Source: Clostridia bacterium (GTDB lineage: Bacteria; Bacillota; Clostridia; Oscillospirales; Acutalibacteraceae). Taken from it: DNA of 64,000 nt. This document shows positions 19,567 to 42,817 of this stretch, piece after piece; positions within the stretch are counted from its first letter, which is position 1; each line of letters opens with the position of its first letter. The stretch lies in NCBI GenBank assembly GCA_017437005.1, contig JAFSBZ010000042.1, forward strand, positions 3,397 through 67,396, read 5' to 3'. Position numbers and translations under genes: made by a program. The notes under the pieces were generated by a model. It was not told where the DNA came from, searched no databases, and was given only the letters and a program-made list of their open reading frames with translations.

Positions 19567-19693
19567 GTGTATTGCCGTATCGCAACATATGACACAATAA
19601 TTTTTCGTTTGGCGACCAATATTATTTTAGCCGAAGTTCGTCTAAAAGTCAATAGCCGTTTTTCGTCTTGCTAAAATAAGATTGGTGATTAAT

Positions 19694-19918
19694 ATGACAA
19701 TACCCGAAAGACTTAAAGCGTTAAGAGAAGAGCATACCGAAAAGTTAAATCAGACAGAACTAGGTAAGCGGCTCAATAAAAGTCAAAGAGCAATTTCAAG
19801 ACTTGAAACTGGCGAAGCGCATTTGCAAGATGATGATTTAGTTTCTTATTGTAAATTTTTCAATGTTTCTGCGGATTATATTTTAGGCTTACCCGATTTA
19901 CCGTATCCGAAAAGATAG
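19694..19918 (+). CDS. XRE-family helix-turn-helix regulator (paralog 1)
   Basis: 74 aa. Has LKALREEHTEKLNQTELGKRLNKSQRAISRLE (HTH_3) and the tail VSADYILGLPDLPYPKR. Confidence 0.8.
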   Translation: MTIPERLKALREEHTEKLNQTELGKRLNKSQRAISRLETGEAHLQDDDLVSYCKFFNVSADYILGLPDLPYPKR

Positions 19919-20168: not shown

Positions 20169-20390
20169 ATGGAATATATTTATCAAAGAGTTAGAGATTT
20201 AAGAGAAGATAAAGACTTGACACAAGCGCAAATTGCGAAGATATTAAATGTTTATACGACAACCTATCAACGATGGGAACGTGGCGAAACCGAAATTCCC
20301 AGCCATATAGTAAAGCAGTTAAGCATTTATTATAATGTTTCTGCAGATTATATTTTAGGCTTATCCGACTTACCGTATCCGAAAAGATAA
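20169..20390 (+). CDS. XRE-family helix-turn-helix regulator (paralog 2)
   Basis: 73 aa. Has VRDLREDKDLTQAQIAKILNVYTTTYQRWE and the tail VSADYILGLSDLPYPKR. Confidence 0.85.
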   Translation: MEYIYQRVRDLREDKDLTQAQIAKILNVYTTTYQRWERGETEIPSHIVKQLSIYYNVSADYILGLSDLPYPKR

Positions 20391-20393
20391 CAA

Positions 20394-20425
20394 AACTCCC
20401 GACTTAAAAATTCAAGTCGGGAGTT
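20394..20425. terminator. bidirectional rho-independent terminator
   Basis: Stem aactcccgactt/aagtcgggagtt between convergent XRE and trxB genes. Confidence 0.75.
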
Positions 20426-20429
20426 AATT

Positions 20430-21329
20430 TTATTTATCAATGTAGTCGCACGCAGCAAGGGCGGCAACGGCGCCGTCGGCGGCGGCTGTTGCTACCTGAC
20501 GGATTTTTTTTGTGCGGCAGTCACCTGCAACAAAAATGCCGTCGGCATTGGTAAGGCAGTTTTCGTCCGATGCTACGTAACCGCGTTCGTCAAGATTTAT
20601 AATGCCCTCAAAGGCCTCGTTTTGAGGAATAAGGCCAATGGCAACAAACATACCGTCTATATCGAGCTGCTTTTCGTTATCGTTACTGTCGGCAATGGTG
20701 ATACCTGTAAGTGTGGTGTCACCAATAATGCCTTTTACGGTATGGCCTAAAATAATCTCGACGTTTTCTTTTGCAGTTAGTTTTTCTTGTAGCTTTTGTT
20801 CGCCCGTTAAAAAGTCAAGGTTTTGCACAACATAAACCTTTTTGGCGAGGTCAGAGAGCAAAATTGCCTCTTGCAAAGCGGAATTACCACCGCCAATAAC
20901 CGCAACGTCGCGTCCCGCGTAAAACGCACCGTCACACACTGCGCAAAAGGATATACCCTCGCCTATAAATTCTTCTTCACGAGGTAGTCCTAACATACGG
21001 TGCTTGGCACCTGTGGCAATTATAACGGTTTTTGCTTCAAAGTTGCCGCCGTCGGTAACTACGGTTTTAATATCTCCTTGTTTGATTTCTAAAACCTCGG
21101 CACATTCAACCTCTGCGTCAAGACCAAGTGCTTGTTCCACTAACTTTTCGGCAAACTCGTTGCCTGTAACTTCACTAAAGCCCGGTATATTTTCAACCTT
21201 TGGTGAAAAGGTGATTTGACCACCAAAAGAGCCTTTTTCTATTACGAGCACGCTTTTATTTGCGCGGCGAGCATAAACCGCCGCGGTAAGACCCGCAGGT
21301 CCGCCGCCTATAACTATAATGTCATACAT
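20430..21329 (-). CDS. trxB: thioredoxin-disulfide reductase-like flavoprotein lacking the HRRxxxR NADPH motif
   Basis: Start set at MYDIIVIGGGPAG (ATG 21329 after ggaga). Has the redox site CAVCDG, GGGNSA and GDC. The region aligned to E. coli HLIHRRDGFRAEK reads VYVVQNLDFLTGEQ. Confidence 0.85.
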   Translation of the reverse strand: MYDIIVIGGGPAGLTAAVYARRANKSVLVIEKGSFGGQITFSPKVENIPGFSEVTGNEFAEKLVEQALGLDAEVECAEVLEIKQGDIKTVVTDGGNFEAKTVIIATGAKHRMLGLPREEEFIGEGISFCAVCDGAFYAGRDVAVIGGGNSALQEAILLSDLAKKVYVVQNLDFLTGEQKLQEKLTAKENVEIILGHTVKGIIGDTTLTGITIADSNDNEKQLDIDGMFVAIGLIPQNEAFEGIINLDERGYVASDENCLTNADGIFVAGDCRTKKIRQVATAAADGAVAALAACDYIDK

Positions 21330-21380
21330 AATTTTCTCCATAAAATAAAACGACCATCACTCAAAACTTGTGTCAAACAT

Positions 21381-21495
21381 AGGCTTCTCCTTGAGGAGAA
21401 GCTGTCACCGTTAGGTGACTGATGAGGTGTAACCAATCACAGCTACACCTCATCCACCGCTTTTGCGGTCCCCCTTCCCCTCAAGGGGAAGGCTT
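21381..21495. repeat. GC-rich multi-hairpin intergenic element (copy B) with hairpin-forming terminal inverted repeats
   Basis: Five perfect hairpins: gcttctcc/ggagaagc, gtcacc/ggtgac, gatgaggtgta/tacacctcatc, accgc/gcggt and ccttcccc/ggggaagg. The left end ggcttctccttgaggagaag matches the reverse complement of the right end, gccttccccttgaggggaag, at 17 of 20 positions. Confidence 0.6.
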
Positions 21496-21531
21496 TGATC
21501 CACAAATTTTTGGGACAGCCATTTTTAAATT

Positions 21532-23898
21532 TTAAGCGTTTAAGTATTTCTTTATATCAGATACGCCTGTATATTTTGTAGCGTTTCCGTTTTCTACAAC
21601 AACGAGTGTAGGTGCTTGCTTAATGCCAAGAGCATTTACAGCCTCTACATTTTCATTAGCAAGAAGCTTGTTAAAGATAACGCCGGCCTTATCAAGCAAA
21701 GATACCGCTATTTTGCAGTTAGGACAGGTTGCTGTTGTAAAAAGATAGTTGCCGTCAGCAAGTACTGCATCGTTCTTTTCTTCACAATTGCACGTGTCCT
21801 TTACACCTTCGTGTGTAAGCTTAGAATTTTCAATATCATAAACCTTACGGTCTTTAAATTCCTGAGACTTACCGTCATTCCAGTTTTGAACAGGACGGTA
21901 GTAACCTGTAATACGGCTGTAAACCTCGGTGCGCTCACCGCAGTCGGGACAGGTATATTCTTCGCCCGCAATGTAACCGTGATTTTTACATACAGAGTAT
22001 GTTGGAGACATTGTGTAGTAAGGCAAACGATAGTTTTCGGCAATCTTTCTTACAAGATTTGCAGCAGCCTTCCAATCGGGAAGCTTTTCACCCAAGAATG
22101 CGTGGAATACTGTACCTGAAGTATAAAGTGTCTGCAACTCATCTTGAACGTCAAGTGCCGAGAAGATATCCTCGGTATAACCAACAGGCAAATGTGAAGA
22201 GTTGGTGTAGTAAGGTGTCTCGCCAGGTCCTCTGCCCGCAGTAATTATGTTTGGATAGTGCTTAAGGTCATGTTTAGCAAGACGGAAAGCAGTTGACTCT
22301 GCAGGGGTAGCCTCAAGGTTATAGAGGTCGCCGTACTGCTCTTGATAGTCAGAAAGACGCTCACGCATATGATTAAGAACATCTTTTGTAAAGTTTTGGG
22401 TCTTTTCGTGGGTAAGGTCAACACCCAACCACTTAGCATTAAGGCCAACCTCGTTCATACCAACAAGACCAAGGGTTGAGAAATGATTATTAAATGTACC
22501 CAAATATCTCTTGGTGTATGGATAAAGGCCAGCTTCAAGAAGCTTTGTAATAACTGTACGCTTAACGTGAAGCGAACGAGCCGAAATGTCCATTATCTTA
22601 TCAAGACGAGCGTAGAAATCAGCCTCATCCTTTGCAAGATAAGCAATACGTGGCATATTAATGGTAACAACGCCTACAGAACCGGTTGATTCGCCGCTAC
22701 CAAAGAAGCCGCCTGACTTTTTACGAAGCTCACGGAGGTCAAGACGAAGTCTGCAGCACATTGAACGAACGTCCGAAGGTTCCATATCGCTGTTGATGTA
22801 GTTTGAGAAATATGGTGTGCCGTATTTTGCGGTCATTTCAAAGAGAAGCTTGTTGTTCTCGGTTTCAGACCAGTCGAAATCACGTGTGATTGAATAGGTA
22901 GGAATTGGATACTGGAAGCCACGACCGTTAGCATCGCCTTCGATCATAATTTCAATAAACGCTTTGTTTATCATATCCATTTCTTTTTTACAATCCTTGT
23001 ACTTAAAGTCCATTTCCTTGCCGCCAACAATACAGTTAAGCTCGGCGAGGTCATTTGGAACTGTCCAGTCAAGTGTAATATTGGTAAACGGTGACTGTGT
23101 ACCCCAACGAGATGGAGTGTTTACACCGTAGATAAAGCTTTGAATACACTGTTTAACCTCTTTGTAGCTGAGGTTATCAACCTTTGCAAAAGGAGCGAGG
23201 TATGTATCAAATGATGAAAACGCCTGTGCACCTGCCCATTCGTTTTGCATAATACCAAGGAAGTTAACCATCTGGTTACAAAGGGTTGACAAATGGCTTG
23301 CGGGAGCGGATGTAATTTTACCCGGTACGCCGCCAAGACCCTCTTGAATAAGCTGCTTAAGTGACCAACCTGCACAGTAGCCGGTAAGCATAGAAAGGTC
23401 GTGAATGTGAATGTCGGCATTGCGGTGAGCGTTACCAATCTCATCATCATAGATTTCAGAAAGCCAATAGTTAGCCGTAACTGCTCCTGAGTTTGAAAGA
23501 ATAAGACCGCCTACAGAATAGGTAACTGTAGAATTTTCCTTAACGCGCCAGTCATTTATATTAAGATAGTTGTCTATAATTGCTTTATAGTCAACCATTG
23601 TAGCATTAATGTTACGAACCTTTTCGCGCTGACGACGATATATAATGTATGCCTTGGCAACATCGTCATAACCTGCTTTAATAAGCACAGATTCTACACT
23701 ATCCTGAATATTTTCGACAGTAACCTTACCATCCTCAATTTTATCGGTAAAATCAGCAGTAACCTTAAGTGCTAAAAAATCAATTACGTCTTGATTATAT
23801 GCTTTTTGGCAAGCATCAAATGCCTGTTTGATGGCTTCGCTAATTTTTTGCAGGTCAAAATTTACAAGTTTTCCATCACGTTTTACTACGTTATACAT
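21532..23898 (-). CDS. nrdD: anaerobic ribonucleoside-triphosphate reductase with a C-terminal CPxC glutaredoxin/thioredoxin-like domain
   Basis: 788 aa. Has an ATP-cone start (VVKRDGKLVNFDLQKI), SMCCRLRL, the zinc site CPDCG and the glycyl-radical motif SRITGYYRPV. 118 further residues end in YLFTTATCPNCKIAVSLLDKAGV...APTLVVVENG... Confidence 0.92.
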   Translation of the reverse strand: MYNVVKRDGKLVNFDLQKISEAIKQAFDACQKAYNQDVIDFLALKVTADFTDKIEDGKVTVENIQDSVESVLIKAGYDDVAKAYIIYRRQREKVRNINATMVDYKAIIDNYLNINDWRVKENSTVTYSVGGLILSNSGAVTANYWLSEIYDDEIGNAHRNADIHIHDLSMLTGYCAGWSLKQLIQEGLGGVPGKITSAPASHLSTLCNQMVNFLGIMQNEWAGAQAFSSFDTYLAPFAKVDNLSYKEVKQCIQSFIYGVNTPSRWGTQSPFTNITLDWTVPNDLAELNCIVGGKEMDFKYKDCKKEMDMINKAFIEIMIEGDANGRGFQYPIPTYSITRDFDWSETENNKLLFEMTAKYGTPYFSNYINSDMEPSDVRSMCCRLRLDLRELRKKSGGFFGSGESTGSVGVVTINMPRIAYLAKDEADFYARLDKIMDISARSLHVKRTVITKLLEAGLYPYTKRYLGTFNNHFSTLGLVGMNEVGLNAKWLGVDLTHEKTQNFTKDVLNHMRERLSDYQEQYGDLYNLEATPAESTAFRLAKHDLKHYPNIITAGRGPGETPYYTNSSHLPVGYTEDIFSALDVQDELQTLYTSGTVFHAFLGEKLPDWKAAANLVRKIAENYRLPYYTMSPTYSVCKNHGYIAGEEYTCPDCGERTEVYSRITGYYRPVQNWNDGKSQEFKDRKVYDIENSKLTHEGVKDTCNCEEKNDAVLADGNYLFTTATCPNCKIAVSLLDKAGVIFNKLLANENVEAVNALGIKQAPTLVVVENGNATKYTGVSDIKKYLNA

Positions 23899-23947
23899 AT
23901 CTTAATCCCCTTCTTTTAATATATTCCCTCATTTGAGGGTGAGCAAG

Positions 23948-24004
23948 ATACATTATATATGATAGCAAACGCTTTGTCAATAGTAAAAACACAATATATT
24001 GTGT
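23948..24004 (-). promoter_or_regulatory. nrdD promoter with two NrdR boxes
   Basis: On the minus strand: TTGACA (23975-23980), a 17-nt spacer, TATAAT (23952-23957). The perfect palindrome acacaatatattgtgt at 23989-24004 lies upstream of the -35. atacattatatatgat at 23948-23963 overlaps the -10. The box centres are 41 bp apart. Confidence 0.7.
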
Positions 24005-24697
24005 TTATATTCCGCGAATTTCCACTTTCGGTATTATATCTTGTGCCGTAAGCCGCATTAAATCAAGGGTTTCACGATTTAATGCTGATAAATTATTTTT
24101 TATAAGATCACCCGAATCAATAAAATTTTGCAAAAAGTACTTGTCGGCACCTTTTATCCACTCGGCAATTTTTTTGATATCTTCTACCGTGTGATACTCC
24201 TTTACAACGGTTGTGCGAAACTCAAAGTCGATTTTATGTTGTTTTAAAATCTCGATGCTTTTCTCTACATTTTGTAAATCTTCCTTACTACATTCGGCAG
24301 TAAGGATATATTTTTCCTGCGCATTTTTAATATCCATTGCAACGTAATCTATAAGCTTGCTGTCTATTAATGCGGCAAGACGGTCGGGATAAGAACCGTT
24401 TGTATCCAATTTCACAAGATAGTCTAAGTCTTTTACCTTTTTAATAAACTCCGGCAATTCCTTATGCATAAGTGGTTCACCACCTGTAATACAAACACCG
24501 TCAAGCAGGCCCTTGCGTTTTTTAAGGTAGGTTAAAATTTCTTCTTCGCTGTAAAAATTGGTATTATCGATATGTGTTACCAAAGAAGCATTGTGACAAA
24601 AAGGACAGCGAAAATTGCACCCTGCGGTAAACAGGGTGCATGCAGTTTTTTCAGGATAATCGAGTAATGTTAATTTTTGAAATCCACTAAATTGCAT
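24005..24697 (-). CDS. nrdG: anaerobic ribonucleoside-triphosphate reductase activating protein (radical SAM)
   Basis: Start set at MQFSGFQK (24697, RBS aaagga). Has CNFRCPFCHN and GVCITGGEP. Confidence 0.9.
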   Translation of the reverse strand: MQFSGFQKLTLLDYPEKTACTLFTAGCNFRCPFCHNASLVTHIDNTNFYSEEEILTYLKKRKGLLDGVCITGGEPLMHKELPEFIKKVKDLDYLVKLDTNGSYPDRLAALIDSKLIDYVAMDIKNAQEKYILTAECSKEDLQNVEKSIEILKQHKIDFEFRTTVVKEYHTVEDIKKIAEWIKGADKYFLQNFIDSGDLIKNNLSALNRETLDLMRLTAQDIIPKVEIRGI

Positions 24698-24713: not shown

Positions 24714-26033
24714 TTAATTATCGGCTGCAAACTGTTCGGCTATTGCCTTTTTGCTATCAGGTCTTGAATCGCCGTGGCGAACAAAACACATAGTAACAAA
24801 TGATGCCACCGAAAAGATTACTGCGTATGGGAATAATACTTCGTATCCCCACCATTTAATAAGCATACCCGAAAGCAAGGGTGTAACTATTTGAGCCGCC
24901 ATAGAGAATGTATAGTAATAGCCTGTGTATTTGCCCACATCCGAGCCGGTGCACATTTCTACAACCATTGGGAACGAGTTTACGTTTATTGAAGCCCAGC
25001 CAATACCTATGATACCAAACATTACATACATAATCCAAGGATTTTGAGTGGCCGTTTTTGCATCTACAAAAATTGCAACGGTATAACAAATTGTCATTAA
25101 AACTATGCCAAAAAGAACCGCTTTTTTTCTACCGATCTTGCTTGACAAGAAGCCAAGTGGCACAAATGCCGCTATTGCCGCAACGGTTGCCACGGTTAAG
25201 AACATTGAGGATGCACCAAGATCAATGTTCCATATCTTAATACAATATCGTGAAAATGTTGTTGTTACACCGTTGTATGCGGTATACCACAAAAATACAG
25301 AAAGCAATATAAGCACAAGACTCACTACAACAGGTTTAGAAAGCTTTGCACCCTTGCCTGATGTTTCCTCTTCCTCGTCTTTGATATTTGTTTCAGCCAG
25401 CACCTTGTTTTCTTTTACAGTAAGCACCATAATAAGAACGGATACAAGCATAAATCCTGCTATTATTAAAAACACGGGGGTAAAAGATTGATTAGATGCA
25501 TAAATCTTTTTTTCTTCACCGTTTACAATAACCGTTTCGCTCTTTAGCATAAACATCATTAAAATGGTTGCAAAAATACCGCCAACGTAACCAACCAAAT
25601 TTATAATAGCGTTACCTTTACTACGAAGCGGTTTTTCGGTAACATCGGGCATATATGCCACAGCGGGTGAACGATAGGTCGCCATTACAACAAGCAATGC
25701 CATAAGGGTAATAATAAATCCCCAAAAATCAACCTTACTTTCAAAGTATGCTAAAACGCAAAGCAAAATAACCGATCCTATTGTTCCATATAATATATAT
25801 GGTGTACGCTTACCAAGTTTTGTGTGTGTTTTGTCAGAAAGCTTACCAAAAAGGGGTAGCATAAAAACTGCCAACACATTGTCTGCTGCCATAAATGCGT
25901 TTGCAACAGGTGTATCAAGTTTAAATTTTTCTTCTAAAACATATGGTATTACCTGATCATAAAACTGCCAGAAAGCAAGTATTGCCATAAATGCAAAGCC
26001 AATAAGTATGGTGCGCTTATAATTTAACTTCAT
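24714..26033 (-). CDS. MFS transporter
   Basis: 439 aa with about 12 TM segments. Has the GKLSDKTHTKLGKRTPY loop typical of GPH/SLC45-like MFS transporters. Substrate unknown. Confidence 0.75.
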   Translation of the reverse strand: MKLNYKRTILIGFAFMAILAFWQFYDQVIPYVLEEKFKLDTPVANAFMAADNVLAVFMLPLFGKLSDKTHTKLGKRTPYILYGTIGSVILLCVLAYFESKVDFWGFIITLMALLVVMATYRSPAVAYMPDVTEKPLRSKGNAIINLVGYVGGIFATILMMFMLKSETVIVNGEEKKIYASNQSFTPVFLIIAGFMLVSVLIMVLTVKENKVLAETNIKDEEEETSGKGAKLSKPVVVSLVLILLSVFLWYTAYNGVTTTFSRYCIKIWNIDLGASSMFLTVATVAAIAAFVPLGFLSSKIGRKKAVLFGIVLMTICYTVAIFVDAKTATQNPWIMYVMFGIIGIGWASINVNSFPMVVEMCTGSDVGKYTGYYYTFSMAAQIVTPLLSGMLIKWWGYEVLFPYAVIFSVASFVTMCFVRHGDSRPDSKKAIAEQFAADN

Positions 26034-27654: not shown

Positions 27655-28485
27655 TTACTGCTGTGTATCTGTTGTACTATCAGGGGTTTTTAACGTTGGC
27701 GCTTTACCATAACCGTAACCGTAACCATAGCCGTAACCGTAGCCGTATTTTGAATATCCATATTTACGATAGTATGCATATTTACGGTAGCCGTACTTAC
27801 GATAGCTATAACCTCTTGATTTTGGATTTGCCGCATTCATAATGGCGCCAAGCAAATTAATATTTGCAAACTTGGCAGATTCAATAGCGCGGCTGATAGA
27901 ATCAGTAGGTGTTACCTGATCTTTTACTACCAACACAAGTCCCGCTGTTTGCGGAGCAATAACCAATGCATCGGTTACTACGTCAACAGGTGGAGTATCA
28001 ATAATAACATAACTGTATTCCTTACCTACGGTGTCAATCAATTCCTTAAATCTTACCGAACCCAAAAGCTCCGATGGGTTAGGTGGAACCTGACCTGCGG
28101 TAATAACATCAAGCGTGTTACTGATATGGTTAATAACCTCTGTATACTTGTTAAAGCCTGCAAGAATATTTGAAAGTCCTGCATTGTTTTCTATTTTCAT
28201 TTTTTTATGAATAGAGCTTTTACGCATATCGGCATCAATAAGCAACACCTTATCACCAAGCTGAGAAAAAGCAATAGCCATATTAACCGACGTTGTTGAT
28301 TTACCTTCACCGGCCTCAGGACTTGTAATACCAAACACCTTAGACTCGCTTGCAGATAACAAAAACGTAAGATTTGTACGAATCGTTTTGTACGCCTCTA
28401 CTACAGCAAATGGGACATGGCGTGACTCGCTTATATTCATAACAGACTGTTTATTATCGGCCTTTTTCTTAATACGCACTGCCAT
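27655..28485 (-). CDS. CpsD/CapB-family tyrosine autokinase (BY-kinase) with a (YG)7 tail
   Basis: Walker A is SPEAGEGKSTT, Walker A' is LLIDADMRKSS and Walker B is VIIDTPPV. The C-terminal cluster YSYRKYGYRKYAYYRKYGYSKYGYGYGYGYGYGYG has 16 Tyr. Confidence 0.9.
   Translation of the reverse strand: MAVRIKKKADNKQSVMNISESRHVPFAVVEAYKTIRTNLTFLLSASESKVFGITSPEAGEGKSTTSVNMAIAFSQLGDKVLLIDADMRKSSIHKKMKIENNAGLSNILAGFNKYTEVINHISNTLDVITAGQVPPNPSELLGSVRFKELIDTVGKEYSYVIIDTPPVDVVTDALVIAPQTAGLVLVVKDQVTPTDSISRAIESAKFANINLLGAIMNAANPKSRGYSYRKYGYRKYAYYRKYGYSKYGYGYGYGYGYGYGKAPTLKTPDSTTDTQQ
27706..27747 (-). repeat. in-frame hexanucleotide tandem repeat (TAY GGY)x7 encoding (YG)7
   Basis: The plus strand reads acc ata acc gta acc gta acc ata gcc gta acc gta gcc gta. 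Confidence 0.9.
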
Positions 28486-40861: not shown

Positions 40862-42817
40862 TTATTGTATTATTAAAGATAAGCAATATATCATTACAAC
40901 CATATTCATAGCGCTTGCGGCAAATATAAGCCTTGATCCGATATTCTTTTTGGTAACAATTGTATTATTTCTTGCAGCAACAATGAGTAATGGCAGCGCC
41001 GGTATAAAATATCTACCCTGAACACCTAATATCTGTGTGCTTCCCATAGGCGTCCAATCTATCAGCAAAAGCATTTCTACCAACAGGAATACTATACCGA
41101 ACAATACAACCGAATAAATTCTTTCCAAAAATCTAAACGGAGTCGGTTCGTCCTCACTACGCATAAACGACAACGCCACCAATACAAAAAACGGAATCGC
41201 CATAAACCACGGGGTTTGCATCTCGAAAAATCCAAAATATGAGATTATAGATTTAGCATAAAAATCTCCCAATTCGACAATTGTATTAAACAGCATATTT
41301 ATGACCTGAGGTATATGCGCAAAAATATATGATAGATTAAATCCGGTTGTTTCAGAATTGGTAACTGTATCCGCCGTTAATTTAGATGCGTTTTGCATTT
41401 GTAATATCAATATTGATGCAACCGCTATTACACCGATTATACATTTAAACGCAAAATGCCATTTTGGTTTTGCAAAACGGTCTTTAGGTATTATTAGTAA
41501 CAGTGCAGCAACACCTATGTAAACAACCTTTTGCGGAATAACCAAAACTATCATAAGAGTCAGCAATAACAATTGTTTCCATCCGATTGTTTTTTTATCA
41601 TATATAAGCTTAATAATATACGCAAAAACAAGCAATACACCACCATAAGTAAACGCATCATACGACATTGATGACATAATGTGGAGGTTAATAGGCAATA
41701 AAGAAATTGCCGCTAATCCTGTTTTTCCAAACGGTATAATTTTGATTGCAAAATAAATCATCACTATGCATTGAATAATATTAAACAATCTTCCTATTTG
41801 AAATGTCCAATATGGACCTATACCTAAAATTCTAGACAATGAAATACCAATAGAAGGCACCAGATAAACAACTGTCTTATTCGTCATATATCCATAATTT
41901 GTAGTTATTATTTCATTGTCATTACAAGATAAACGATTATAATCACCATCGATTATATAGTCTTGTGTATATAATGAATTGTTTCCGTGACTGCAATAAT
42001 CATAATCATCCGCTCTCATACGAAGTGCCCATTGTTCATCTTTAAAATCAAGCATTAGCTGATTTGAAACATGGTATGCTGCCCTATAATGAGAAAACTC
42101 ATCGGGCACCGTAAAAGGTGGAAAAATGAATAAACACGCCACACAGAAAAAAGCCAACATCATAGCGCAGAGTCCGGATATACTTATCTTTTTATATTTA
42201 ACAAGCAAAACAAAAGCAGAAAGAAACAATATTCCGACAATAACAAATACCCAATATAAAGTGTACTTTAGCTGGTTTCTCATTGTGCGTACGTCTACTA
42301 CTATATTGGTAGACATTTGTTTTCCGTCAAGTGTACATTTGCTGTTTTCTATCACTGTTGAACTGTTTGTTGAAACAGTGAAATCCCCGTCCTGAGCAGT
42401 AAGCTTTATTTTTAGTTCTGATTCTTTATCAAGCATAATCTCTTTTGGCAAATCTATGTAAGTGTATCCACTTAAATTTATATCTGCTGCCGAGAGAGTT
42501 GTTTCTGTTTTTTGATCGACATATTCAAGATTTATCTTGATATTACATTTGGGTGACACTCCACTTATAAACATTCCCAGTTGTTTGTAAGATAGTGTCT
42601 TAATTTTATATTGTTGTGTTACAGTTTGCCCTTCGGATACCGTTATTCTATCATCAAAACCGGTTACCTCCCCTACTGTATAGGAATGTTTGGGAAGATT
42701 TTTGTTATTGTTTATTCTATAGCAATAAAAAGCAACCGCTACCGCAAGAACAGCCAAAATAATTGTTATTGCACATATCAAACTTTTTTTCTTCTCCAAA
42801 AACTCAAACACCTTCAT
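40862..42817 (-). CDS. polytopic GT-C-like membrane glycosyltransferase candidate (DUF2142-like, GacL-like position)
   Basis: 651 aa. One TM, then an extracytoplasmic domain of about 170 aa, then more than 10 TM segments. The PDEFSHY motif follows the second TM segment (the first helix of the polytopic block). Very AT-rich. Confidence 0.6.
   Translation of the reverse strand: MKVFEFLEKKKSLICAITIILAVLAVAVAFYCYRINNNKNLPKHSYTVGEVTGFDDRITVSEGQTVTQQYKIKTLSYKQLGMFISGVSPKCNIKINLEYVDQKTETTLSAADINLSGYTYIDLPKEIMLDKESELKIKLTAQDGDFTVSTNSSTVIENSKCTLDGKQMSTNIVVDVRTMRNQLKYTLYWVFVIVGILFLSAFVLLVKYKKISISGLCAMMLAFFCVACLFIFPPFTVPDEFSHYRAAYHVSNQLMLDFKDEQWALRMRADDYDYCSHGNNSLYTQDYIIDGDYNRLSCNDNEIITTNYGYMTNKTVVYLVPSIGISLSRILGIGPYWTFQIGRLFNIIQCIVMIYFAIKIIPFGKTGLAAISLLPINLHIMSSMSYDAFTYGGVLLVFAYIIKLIYDKKTIGWKQLLLLTLMIVLVIPQKVVYIGVAALLLIIPKDRFAKPKWHFAFKCIIGVIAVASILILQMQNASKLTADTVTNSETTGFNLSYIFAHIPQVINMLFNTIVELGDFYAKSIISYFGFFEMQTPWFMAIPFFVLVALSFMRSEDEPTPFRFLERIYSVVLFGIVFLLVEMLLLIDWTPMGSTQILGVQGRYFIPALPLLIVAARNNTIVTKKNIGSRLIFAASAMNMVVMIYCLSLIIQ

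Follow-up and report, generated by a model that had tools for sequence, protein, structure and literature searches.

How does an uncultured gut bacterium supply its class III ribonucleotide reductase (RNR) with electrons, and could the reductant be written into the reductase gene itself and the gene next to it? Class III RNRs with the double-cysteine finger-loop motif MCCR could use formate or thioredoxin (Burnim et al. 2022, PMC9669993). Here, we analysed a locus within a stretch of 64,000 nucleotides (the window) from a Clostridia bacterium of the family Acutalibacteraceae (assembly GCA_017437005.1, contig JAFSBZ010000042.1). Three genes lie there in a row on the minus strand, the strand of all features below unless stated otherwise: nrdG (24005-24697) for the radical-SAM activase of class III RNR, nrdD (21532-23898) for a class III RNR of 788 amino acids with a C-terminal redoxin extension, and a gene (20430-21341) for a flavin adenine dinucleotide (FAD)-dependent disulfide reductase resembling thioredoxin reductase (TrxR). 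We consider it probable that the locus encodes a self-contained thiol-based reducing system for the class III RNR, in which electrons would run from NADH via the FAD and the CAVC dithiol of the reductase to the tethered CPNC dithiol and from there to the active-site cysteines of NrdD.

This layout had been anticipated by a prediction made from the letters of the sequence (hereafter the original prediction), which placed nrdG just upstream of nrdD and a TrxR-type gene 190 nt downstream of it. Both placements hold. The protein encoded directly upstream of nrdD scores 228 bits against the NrdG2 model TIGR02495 (NCBIfam, cut-off 131) and has 230 amino acids in the public gene call, and the reductase gene follows nrdD after a spacer at 21342-21531. 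The open reading frame (ORF) of the reductase comprises 303 amino acids, while the public call begins at 21329 and gives 299. Metagenome contigs assigned to an uncultured Clostridia bacterium carry the sequence of the window with identical gene calls.

The core of NrdD is that of a class III RNR throughout. An ATP-cone (residues 3-92, 23623-23892; PF03477, E 1.3e-22) precedes the NRDD catalytic barrel and glycyl-radical domain (residues 121-687, 21838-23538; PF13597, E 1e-189), and the latter match runs end to end, covering positions 1-562 of 562. The model NF006126/PRK08270 recognises the protein with 1141 bits (cut-off 548), and 8p23, 4coi and 4u3e are relatives of the core in the PDB. The ATP-cone, the CPDCG zinc site, the glycyl-radical motif SRITGYYRPV and the 118 residues beyond it, all of which had been read off beforehand, were recovered by Pfam, NCBIfam and translation. 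The segment CKNHG...CPDCG occupies residues 637-654; its cluster of C637, H640, C650 and C653 (21937-21990) lies before the glycyl-radical loop, aligns with the Zn-ribbon region of 4coi and represents a putative zinc site. RITGYY with Gly665 follows at residues 662-667 (21898-21915).

Which residues would carry out nucleotide reduction? Alignment with the Thermotoga maritima enzyme (TmNrdD; 4coi/4u3e), to which the similarity of the window protein is modest (133 bits), places Y174-C175 of GYCAGW at Y124-C125 and marks Cys175 (23374-23376) as the beta-A cysteine of the reducing pair. The finger loop M380-C381-C382-R383 (22750-22761), which is of the double-cysteine type, falls on S-C329-C330-R, and Glu529 in NLEATPAE (22312-22314) on E495 (NIE495QV), the putative proton donor of redoxin-dependent NrdDs; the formate-type NrdD of P. 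copri (Prevotella) has a leucine where the window protein has Glu529. These residues are conserved to a high degree: among 54 full-length NrdDs, GYCAGW is found in 53 and its cysteine in all, SMCCRL in all, and Glu529 is invariant, with YNLEATPAE in 53 sequences and YNLEATSAE in the remaining one. The glycyl-radical motif reads SRITGYYRPV/I in 54/54. By these alignments, the NrdD core carries all three cysteines plus the glutamate of the redoxin-dependent NrdD2 subtype, the criteria of which, like the meaning of the finger-loop motifs, were described by Aurelius et al. (PMC4493059) and Burnim et al. (PMC9669993). An assignment to the RNRdb subclass NrdDh4 on the basis of MCCR (PMC4493059) was dropped, since MCCR is the dominant double-cysteine motif across class III (PMC9669993) and the similarity to TmNrdD is no more than modest.

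Beyond the glycyl-radical domain, the last ~75 residues had been claimed to form a CPxC domain of thioredoxin-like layout, and fold prediction, structural comparison and the Pfam score of the isolated domain agree with this claim. A homologue search with the last 103 residues of NrdD as query returned 158 relatives, 120 of which were listed. Using an alignment of 64 tail sequences, AlphaFold2 (AF2) modelled residues 716-788 (21535-21753) as beta-alpha-beta-alpha-beta-beta-alpha with a predicted local distance difference test score (pLDDT) of ~90. In the numbering of the tail model, a strand (31-36) leads to C40-P-N-C43, which starts a helix (41-53), and A-P78-T-L stands ahead of a further strand (79-84); in NrdD, the dithiol corresponds to C725-C728 (21715-21726) and the cis-Pro loop to QAPTL. 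Foldseek found 104 matches to the model in the PDB at E<=1e-3, and all 50 matches listed are thioredoxins, glutaredoxins or Trx-fold domains; thioredoxin and glutaredoxin matches have a probability of 1.00. Both cysteines are invariant in the orthologues. C-P-N-C-K and A-P-T-L are invariant columns among the 64 aligned tail relatives, CPNC is present in 117/120 listed relatives, and TCPNCK in all 54 full-length NrdDs.

To which redoxin family does the domain belong? The Pfam family Glutaredoxin (PF00462, cut-off 22.9) gave 20.7 bits with the whole NrdD and 24.9 bits with the isolated 74-residue domain, and Thioredoxin (PF00085) gave 20.9 bits with the tail (cut-off 23.5). The glutathione-binding motifs TVP and GGxDD were not evident in the tail domain upon inspection by eye. 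With the NrdH-redoxin model TIGR02194, the tail reached 17.3 bits (cut-off 85.75); it has CPNC instead of CVQC and no WSGFRP. In a profile search against the PDB, the atypical CPHC thioredoxin 2l6c, Pyrococcus PDO, glutaredoxin, thioredoxin, Mj0307 and NrdH ranked close together, no more than a few orders of magnitude apart. On its modelled fold and its motifs, the tail is a small Trx-fold dithiol redoxin outside every named subfamily, and NrdH is ruled out.

The domain is connected to the core by a flexible linker (residues 688-714, 21757-21837; AF2 pLDDT ~47-60), and the ~28 residues ahead of the redoxin domain are disordered in the AF2 model. The linker contains a semi-conserved CxC(EE) with C703 and C705 (21784-21792). 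This CxC, C703-N-C705 in the window, keeps a fixed place and is usually followed by acidic residues. It is present in 131/185 distinct linkers (~70%), some cysteine occurs in 168/185, and the linker sequence is otherwise variable; the pair may function as a shuttle dithiol or in metal binding. The 120 closest full-length relatives of NrdD (87-99% identity) have 786-802 amino acids, save one of 950, and the tail is therefore kept throughout; the precomputed Pfam annotation of these relatives usually misses the tail domain. Homologues of the tail that seemed to stand free were considered as evidence on the origin of the fusion and rejected: the four with readable upstream sequence (P0052, P0081, P0096 and P0119) are fused genes in which an in-frame stop, a frameshift or N-gaps interrupt the reading frame, and another (P0101) sits at a contig end.

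The protein encoded by the third gene belongs to Pyr_redox_2 (Pfam, E 4e-49), possesses the FAD-binding motif GGGPAG and scores 330 bits against the low-molecular-weight TrxR model TIGR01292, just below the cut-off of 343.45; NCBI names it only 'FAD-dependent oxidoreductase'. The two motifs noted for it beforehand, CAVCDG and GGGNSA, are in place, the former as the redox dithiol motif CAVC (20934-20945) and the latter as the pyrophosphate-binding loop (20877-20894). Also borne out was the claim that every His and Arg contacting the NADPH 2'-phosphate is gone: QNLDFLTGE (20799-20825) replaces HRRxxxRAE, which reads HRRDGFRAE in the E. coli enzyme. Motifs were counted in 76 sequences, the window protein and 75 orthologues. 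CAVC is found in 76/76 and GGGNSA in 75/76; GGGNSALQEA is essentially invariant. The 2'-phosphate site is QNLxxxTGE-like in all 76 (one with QDL) and HRR occurs in none. The canonical thioredoxin-docking motif GRG/GKG is mostly GEG in these reductases, and FF is AF; such altered docking motifs are consistent with a non-canonical redoxin partner. The best match in the PDB is the TrxR of Thermosipho africanus (7jyp, Thermotogales), which shares 43% identity and has VQNL at the same place.

The coupling of the two genes is seen far beyond the window. In a scan of one genome per GTDB species, 595 of the 600 stretches listed encode a relative of the tail, so that at least 595 species-level genomes possess it. 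Synteny was analysed in the best 80 loci, which derive from human, ruminant (rumen) and other guts and are nearly all metagenome-assembled genomes labelled Clostridia, Acutalibacteraceae, Oscillospiraceae, Eubacteriales, Candidatus Fimenecus or Ruminococcus sp. In 75/76 loci with downstream sequence, nrdG, the fused nrdD and the TrxR-like gene follow each other as in the window, the other four loci lacking the reductase gene at contig ends; the expected co-occurrence of a fused NrdD with an HRR-less reductase is thereby observed. Nearly all orthologous loci have nrdG upstream of nrdD. From nrdD to the reductase gene, the median distance is ~25 nt, with frequent overlap of the two ORFs. The synteny spans at least 75 genomes, with identities to the window proteins down to 78% for NrdD and 58% for the reductase. 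With CPNC in 117 of the 120 tail relatives and motifs invariant in orthologues from 76-80 other genomes, the motif features are far beyond chance. The architecture, the fold, the motif conservation, the synteny and the subclass residues are established computationally.

More distant relatives show where the fusion occurs and where it does not. Among 1.84 billion cluster representatives, NrdDs of ~50% identity are typically unfused (688-711 amino acids), yet have MCCR and NLEATPAE. Independent NrdD lineages among these representatives carry C-terminal CPNC, CPKC or CPRC domains, some together with inteins, and seven viral or proviral contigs from IMG/VR (L090-L096) encode an NrdD with a C-terminal CPNC or CPKC domain, two of them nearly linker-free. 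Because independent NrdD lineages and seven viral contigs carry such domains, the fusion has repeatedly been kept or gained. Many close NrdD representatives (within P0362-P0510) are 1000-1900 amino acids long and match in 2-4 separate stretches. The full sequences of two of them, P0423 and P0465, contain intein-like insertions, one located directly after the Met-Cys of the finger loop. Another representative, P0405 (782 amino acids), aligns end to end with the fused NrdD, has neither the beta-A cysteine nor MCCR, the glycyl-radical motif or the tail CxxC, and possesses an Asn-rich linker; it appears to be a 'dead' fused NrdD.

How would such a system work? NrdG would put the glycyl radical on NrdD, and C175 together with one of C381/C382 would pass electrons to the nucleotide, becoming a disulfide, with E529 acting as proton donor. 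The active-site disulfide would be re-reduced by the CPNC domain on its ~28-residue flexible tether, and the linker CxC pair might serve as an optional relay in between, comparable to the cysteine pairs found at the C-terminus of class I and II RNRs. In turn, the flavoprotein from the neighbouring gene would use its CAVC dithiol to reduce the oxidised CPNC, and its FAD would probably be fed by NADH. We infer the direction of electron flow, the donor and the independence from formate from the sequences and their conservation. As far as computation allows, the interpretation offered by the original prediction is supported.

A number of observations weigh against this proposal. His175 of the canonical 2'-phosphate site is replaced by Gln in the reductase, which has no acidic residue as in a classical NADH site. 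The homologue search with the reductase as query had only relatives of at least 91% identity among its matches, so that distant QNL-type enzymes and their gene contexts lay outside its view; the AF2 model of the reductase, computed from a shallow alignment of 91-100% identity, has a pLDDT of 51 and gives no structural support. A preference for NADH, reported for the T. maritima TrxR (Yang and Ma 2010, cited in PMC5627308), speaks for NADH as donor, though that enzyme may or may not share the QNL motif. The finger loop of NrdD is a further point. Of the residues expected for a thiol-type core, C175, C381-C382 and E529 are present, while the loop keeps the methionine of the formate type: all 54 full-length sequences have MCCR, where NrdD2 enzymes are expected to have no finger-loop methionine. 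The formate mechanism makes use of this methionine (PMC4493059, PMC9669993), its absence is a signature of 'thioredoxin only' clades (PMC9669993), and MCCR enzymes were described as holding the components for formate, thioredoxin or both (Burnim et al., PMC9669993). Because the finger loop is MCCR and not SCCR, the sequence leaves room for the use of formate by the enzyme of the window. The linker CxC cannot be essential, because it is missing from ~30% of linkers and some viral versions are nearly linker-free. One locus, L076, is a real exception to the synteny and lacks the reductase gene, and a TrxR-like gene was found within 4 kb of the viral fused nrdD in 0/7 contigs; phages with a tethered redoxin would rely on the reductase of the host.

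The donor is the weakest step of the proposal, and NADH is the most likely one. According to Valette et al. (PMC5627308), the pyrophosphate motif GGGxxAxE is kept in thioredoxin reductases that use NADPH or NADH and degenerate in those independent of NAD(P)H. Since the pyrophosphate loop is intact here and the 2'-phosphate site is lost, NADH is indicated as the donor. Traits of NAD(P)H-independent enzymes were looked for in the reductase, and neither a degenerate pyrophosphate loop nor the TRi signature TQ/NGK was seen. Could the relay from CAVC via CPNC to the active site nonetheless be real and start from reduced ferredoxin, flavodoxin or another carrier, as in FFTR, DDOR and DvTRi, or from a weak use of NADPH? 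Such an arrangement would accommodate the loss of every NADPH 2'-phosphate ligand and the want of an acidic residue closing beta-2, and the class III RNR of Methanosarcina barkeri is reportedly fed in this manner, with electrons passing from ferredoxin to a disulfide reductase, an NrdH-like protein and the RNR. We regard it as unlikely, as GGGNSALQEA is essentially invariant while FFTR, DvTRi and DFTR carry a degenerate pyrophosphate motif (PMC5627308, PMC10880999), even though Clostridia are known to hold ferredoxin-dependent flavin thioredoxin reductases (PMC10880999, PMC5627308). The similarity searches point in the same direction: the reductase matches NAD(P)H-type TrxRs with E-values of 1e-72 to 1e-78 and far more weakly the FFTR 6gna (5e-39), the Gloeobacter enzyme 5j60 (1e-42) and 5nii (1.5e-27).

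A second alternative concerns the role of the redoxin itself. Formate might be the reductant during turnover, acting via a thiosulfuranyl radical of Met380 and Cys175, and the redoxin and its reductase might be needed for maintenance, activation or repair after contact with oxygen, for example by holding the C-terminal zinc site and other cysteines in the reduced state in which NrdG could place the glycyl radical. We consider this improbable in view of the second finger-loop cysteine and Glu529, both of which are invariant though unneeded for the formate route. An operon-encoded reductase supplied stoichiometrically in 75/76 loci would likewise be a heavy investment for maintenance, and the retention of the tail in phage versions better suits a catalytic need. 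On the other side of the balance stand the invariant methionine of MCCR, the position of the tail directly after the zinc and glycyl-radical domain, and the transient exposure of gut anaerobes to oxygen. In addition, thioredoxin reportedly stimulates the activation of the E. coli NrdD by way of cysteines near its C-terminus, a finding associated with Padovani and colleagues in 2001.

Least of all do we expect a general disulfide-reducing system or a peroxide defence with an incidental link to nrdD: the closest functional analogue, Cp34/Cp9 of Clostridium pasteurianum, reportedly feeds a peroxiredoxin (a result attributed to Reynolds and colleagues in 2002) and rubredoxin, ferritin and Fur genes lie just downstream in one relative (L085), but all intact genes examined encode the redoxin and NrdD as one covalent chain, the gene order is kept over at least 75 genomes, and no peroxiredoxin gene was seen among the ORFs and public gene calls of the operon in the window. 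The two latter alternatives are disfavoured because the second cysteine and the glutamate are invariant, the fusion is covalent and the synteny is near-universal. Within the 64-kb window, neither a second thioredoxin nor a second TrxR is encoded.

How does the proposed thiol relay compare with known systems? Thioredoxin-dependent class III RNRs were reportedly grouped as the NrdD2 class in 2014 by Wei and colleagues, with the enzymes of Neisseria bacilliformis and T. maritima as members. Like the enzyme of the window, these have three active-site cysteines and a glutamate; they are served by a CxxC redoxin and a flavoprotein reductase, as the enzyme of the window would be, and the active-site chemistry proposed above is as described for the thioredoxin-dependent N. 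bacilliformis enzyme. They differ in employing a separate general thioredoxin and an NADPH-dependent TrxR in place of a fused redoxin and a dedicated HRR-less reductase, and in having SCCR, not MCCR. The M. barkeri NrdD3 resembles the window in that a dedicated non-NADPH disulfide reductase and a small redoxin of the Trx fold are encoded in its operon; in M. barkeri, in contrast, the redoxin is separate and the reductase is the iron-sulfur ferredoxin:disulfide reductase, not a flavoprotein homologous to TrxR. Table 1 of PMC9176816 lists thioredoxin, TrxR and NADPH for NrdD2, and an operon-encoded NrdH-like protein with ferredoxin:disulfide reductase for NrdD3. NrdD3 enzymes are without the glutamate and have QCCR (PMC9669993).

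A redoxin domain fused to an RNR polypeptide also has a precedent. In Facklamia ignava, the glutaredoxin domain of a Grx::ATP-cone::NrdB protein was shown to act as reductant of the RNR (Rozman Grinberg et al. 2018, PMC6187632). The glutaredoxin fusions in that study differ from the one described here as they are N-terminal, mostly attached to class I NrdB, and comprise true glutaredoxins that use glutathione. Its RefSeq survey contains a single 'Glutaredoxin:NrdD', an N-terminal fusion of subclass NrdDd from Lachnospiraceae bacterium TWA4, and does not list a C-terminal CPNC fusion. The statement that no characterised fused example is known thus agrees with the literature covered, in which the only listed case is N-terminal, of another subclass and uncharacterised.

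For the pair of flavoprotein and redoxin, the nearest counterparts are NADH-linked pairs, namely Cp34/Cp9 of C. pasteurianum, the TrxR and glutaredoxin-like protein of T. maritima, and TR3/Trx3 of Desulfovibrio vulgaris, in each of which an HRR-less low-molecular-weight TrxR homologue works with a non-canonical redoxin; for Cp34 and the T. maritima TrxR, the likeness is by description only. They differ in their clients, a peroxiredoxin or general disulfides, and in their free-standing redoxins. The T. maritima enzyme and D. vulgaris TR3 were described as HRR-less, NADH-preferring TrxR homologues acting with glutaredoxin-like proteins (PMC5627308). The signatures of TR3 and dcTR1 (the His in VHY, and CxQ; PMC5627308) are not found in the reductase of the window, which has GEGISFCAVC. 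The parts are thus known (class III RNRs that depend on a redoxin, fusions of RNRs with redoxins, and pairs of TrxR-like and glutaredoxin-like proteins of the NADH type), while their combination across hundreds of species was not found described: we came across no account of an NrdD that ends in a Trx-fold domain and shares a conserved operon with a dedicated HRR-less TrxR homologue in the literature covered, to which Wei et al. 2014 and 2015 did not belong.

But, what would a bacterium gain from reducing its RNR in this way? If the wider reading suggested below is true, the supply of deoxyribonucleoside triphosphates (dNTPs) would be independent both of formate and of the pool of NADPH and thioredoxin. 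The fusion would then be the first direct sign from genomes that thiols drive, in vivo, the NrdDs with MCCR and the glutamate, which make up most double-cysteine class III enzymes. Since the genome itself names both redoxin and reductase, a compact system of three proteins makes it possible to test the reductant of MCCR enzymes directly in vitro. Tentatively, and with somewhat less than even confidence, we suggest a wider reading, namely that a big uncultured branch of gut Clostridia and some phages run dNTP synthesis on a class III RNR with a convergently acquired C-terminal shuttle domain, the counterpart of the electron-shuttling tails of class I and II enzymes and often with an additional CxC pair in its tether, and a private flavoprotein that is NADH-specific or otherwise non-NADPH. 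The system is abundant in gut and rumen Clostridia, yet invisible in annotation, where NCBI calls its parts 'ribonucleoside triphosphate reductase' and 'FAD-dependent oxidoreductase'. It adds a case of a low-molecular-weight TrxR homologue dedicated to a single client and bears on the coupling of DNA synthesis to redox carriers in anaerobes.

Signals around the genes fit a shared transcript of nrdD and the reductase gene, controlled in the manner of RNR genes. A predicted sigma-70-like promoter, TTGACA-17-TATAAT, matches the consensus in 12/12 positions upstream of nrdD (23952-23980). In the spacer between nrdG and nrdD lies the perfect 16-bp palindrome ACACAATATATTGTGT (23989-24004, without strand), which has 0 mismatches to ACACWATATATWGTGT, the sequence that we take to be the NrdR-box consensus; going by this consensus, the palindrome is presumably an NrdR operator. 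It is the only intergenic NrdR-box-like match within the window, and no second box was seen beside it at the usual distance. Two other matches, at 42249 and 57985, were discarded as they lie inside ORFs and are at chance level. Downstream of the reductase gene, a predicted intrinsic-terminator-like hairpin of 14 pairs with a T-rich tail (20394-20425) matches the consensus of such elements and, read from 20425 to 20394, is the only strong terminator-like hairpin of the minus strand at the locus.

At 190 nt, the spacer that separates nrdD from the reductase gene (21342-21531) is longer than most orthologous spacers, which measure only 2-30 nt. It is rich in hairpins, with a predicted RNA folding energy of -94.3 kcal/mol (z -9.7) and five hairpins closed by a long stem, and is present in one copy in the window. 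Pieces of it recur in either orientation elsewhere, in the same spacer or upstream of nrdG (L040, L044, L079 and L031). A riboswitch or an intrinsic terminator was considered and rejected: no Rfam family matched at threshold, no hairpin is followed by a T-run, and fragments occur in both orientations at other loci. The spacer is probably an inserted mobile palindromic repeat resembling repetitive extragenic palindromes or miniature inverted-repeat transposable elements (REP/MITE-like).

Upstream of nrdG, an MFS transporter gene (24714-26033) ends 17 nt before the start of the nrdG gene and shows a weak match to Nucleoside:H+ symporter (E 0.0036). Only the closest relatives (L001 and L081) have this neighbour, which may connect the RNR genes with the uptake of nucleosides. 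Just past the terminator of the reductase gene, two small paralogous ORFs of the XRE-type with a helix-turn-helix lie on the plus strand (19682-19918 and 20169-20390), both ending in the unusual sequence SADYILGL(P/S)DLPYPKR. Further upstream, a CpsD/Wzz-associated tyrosine-kinase-like protein (27655-28485) ends in a long Tyr-Gly repeat tail, YGYGYGYGYGYG.

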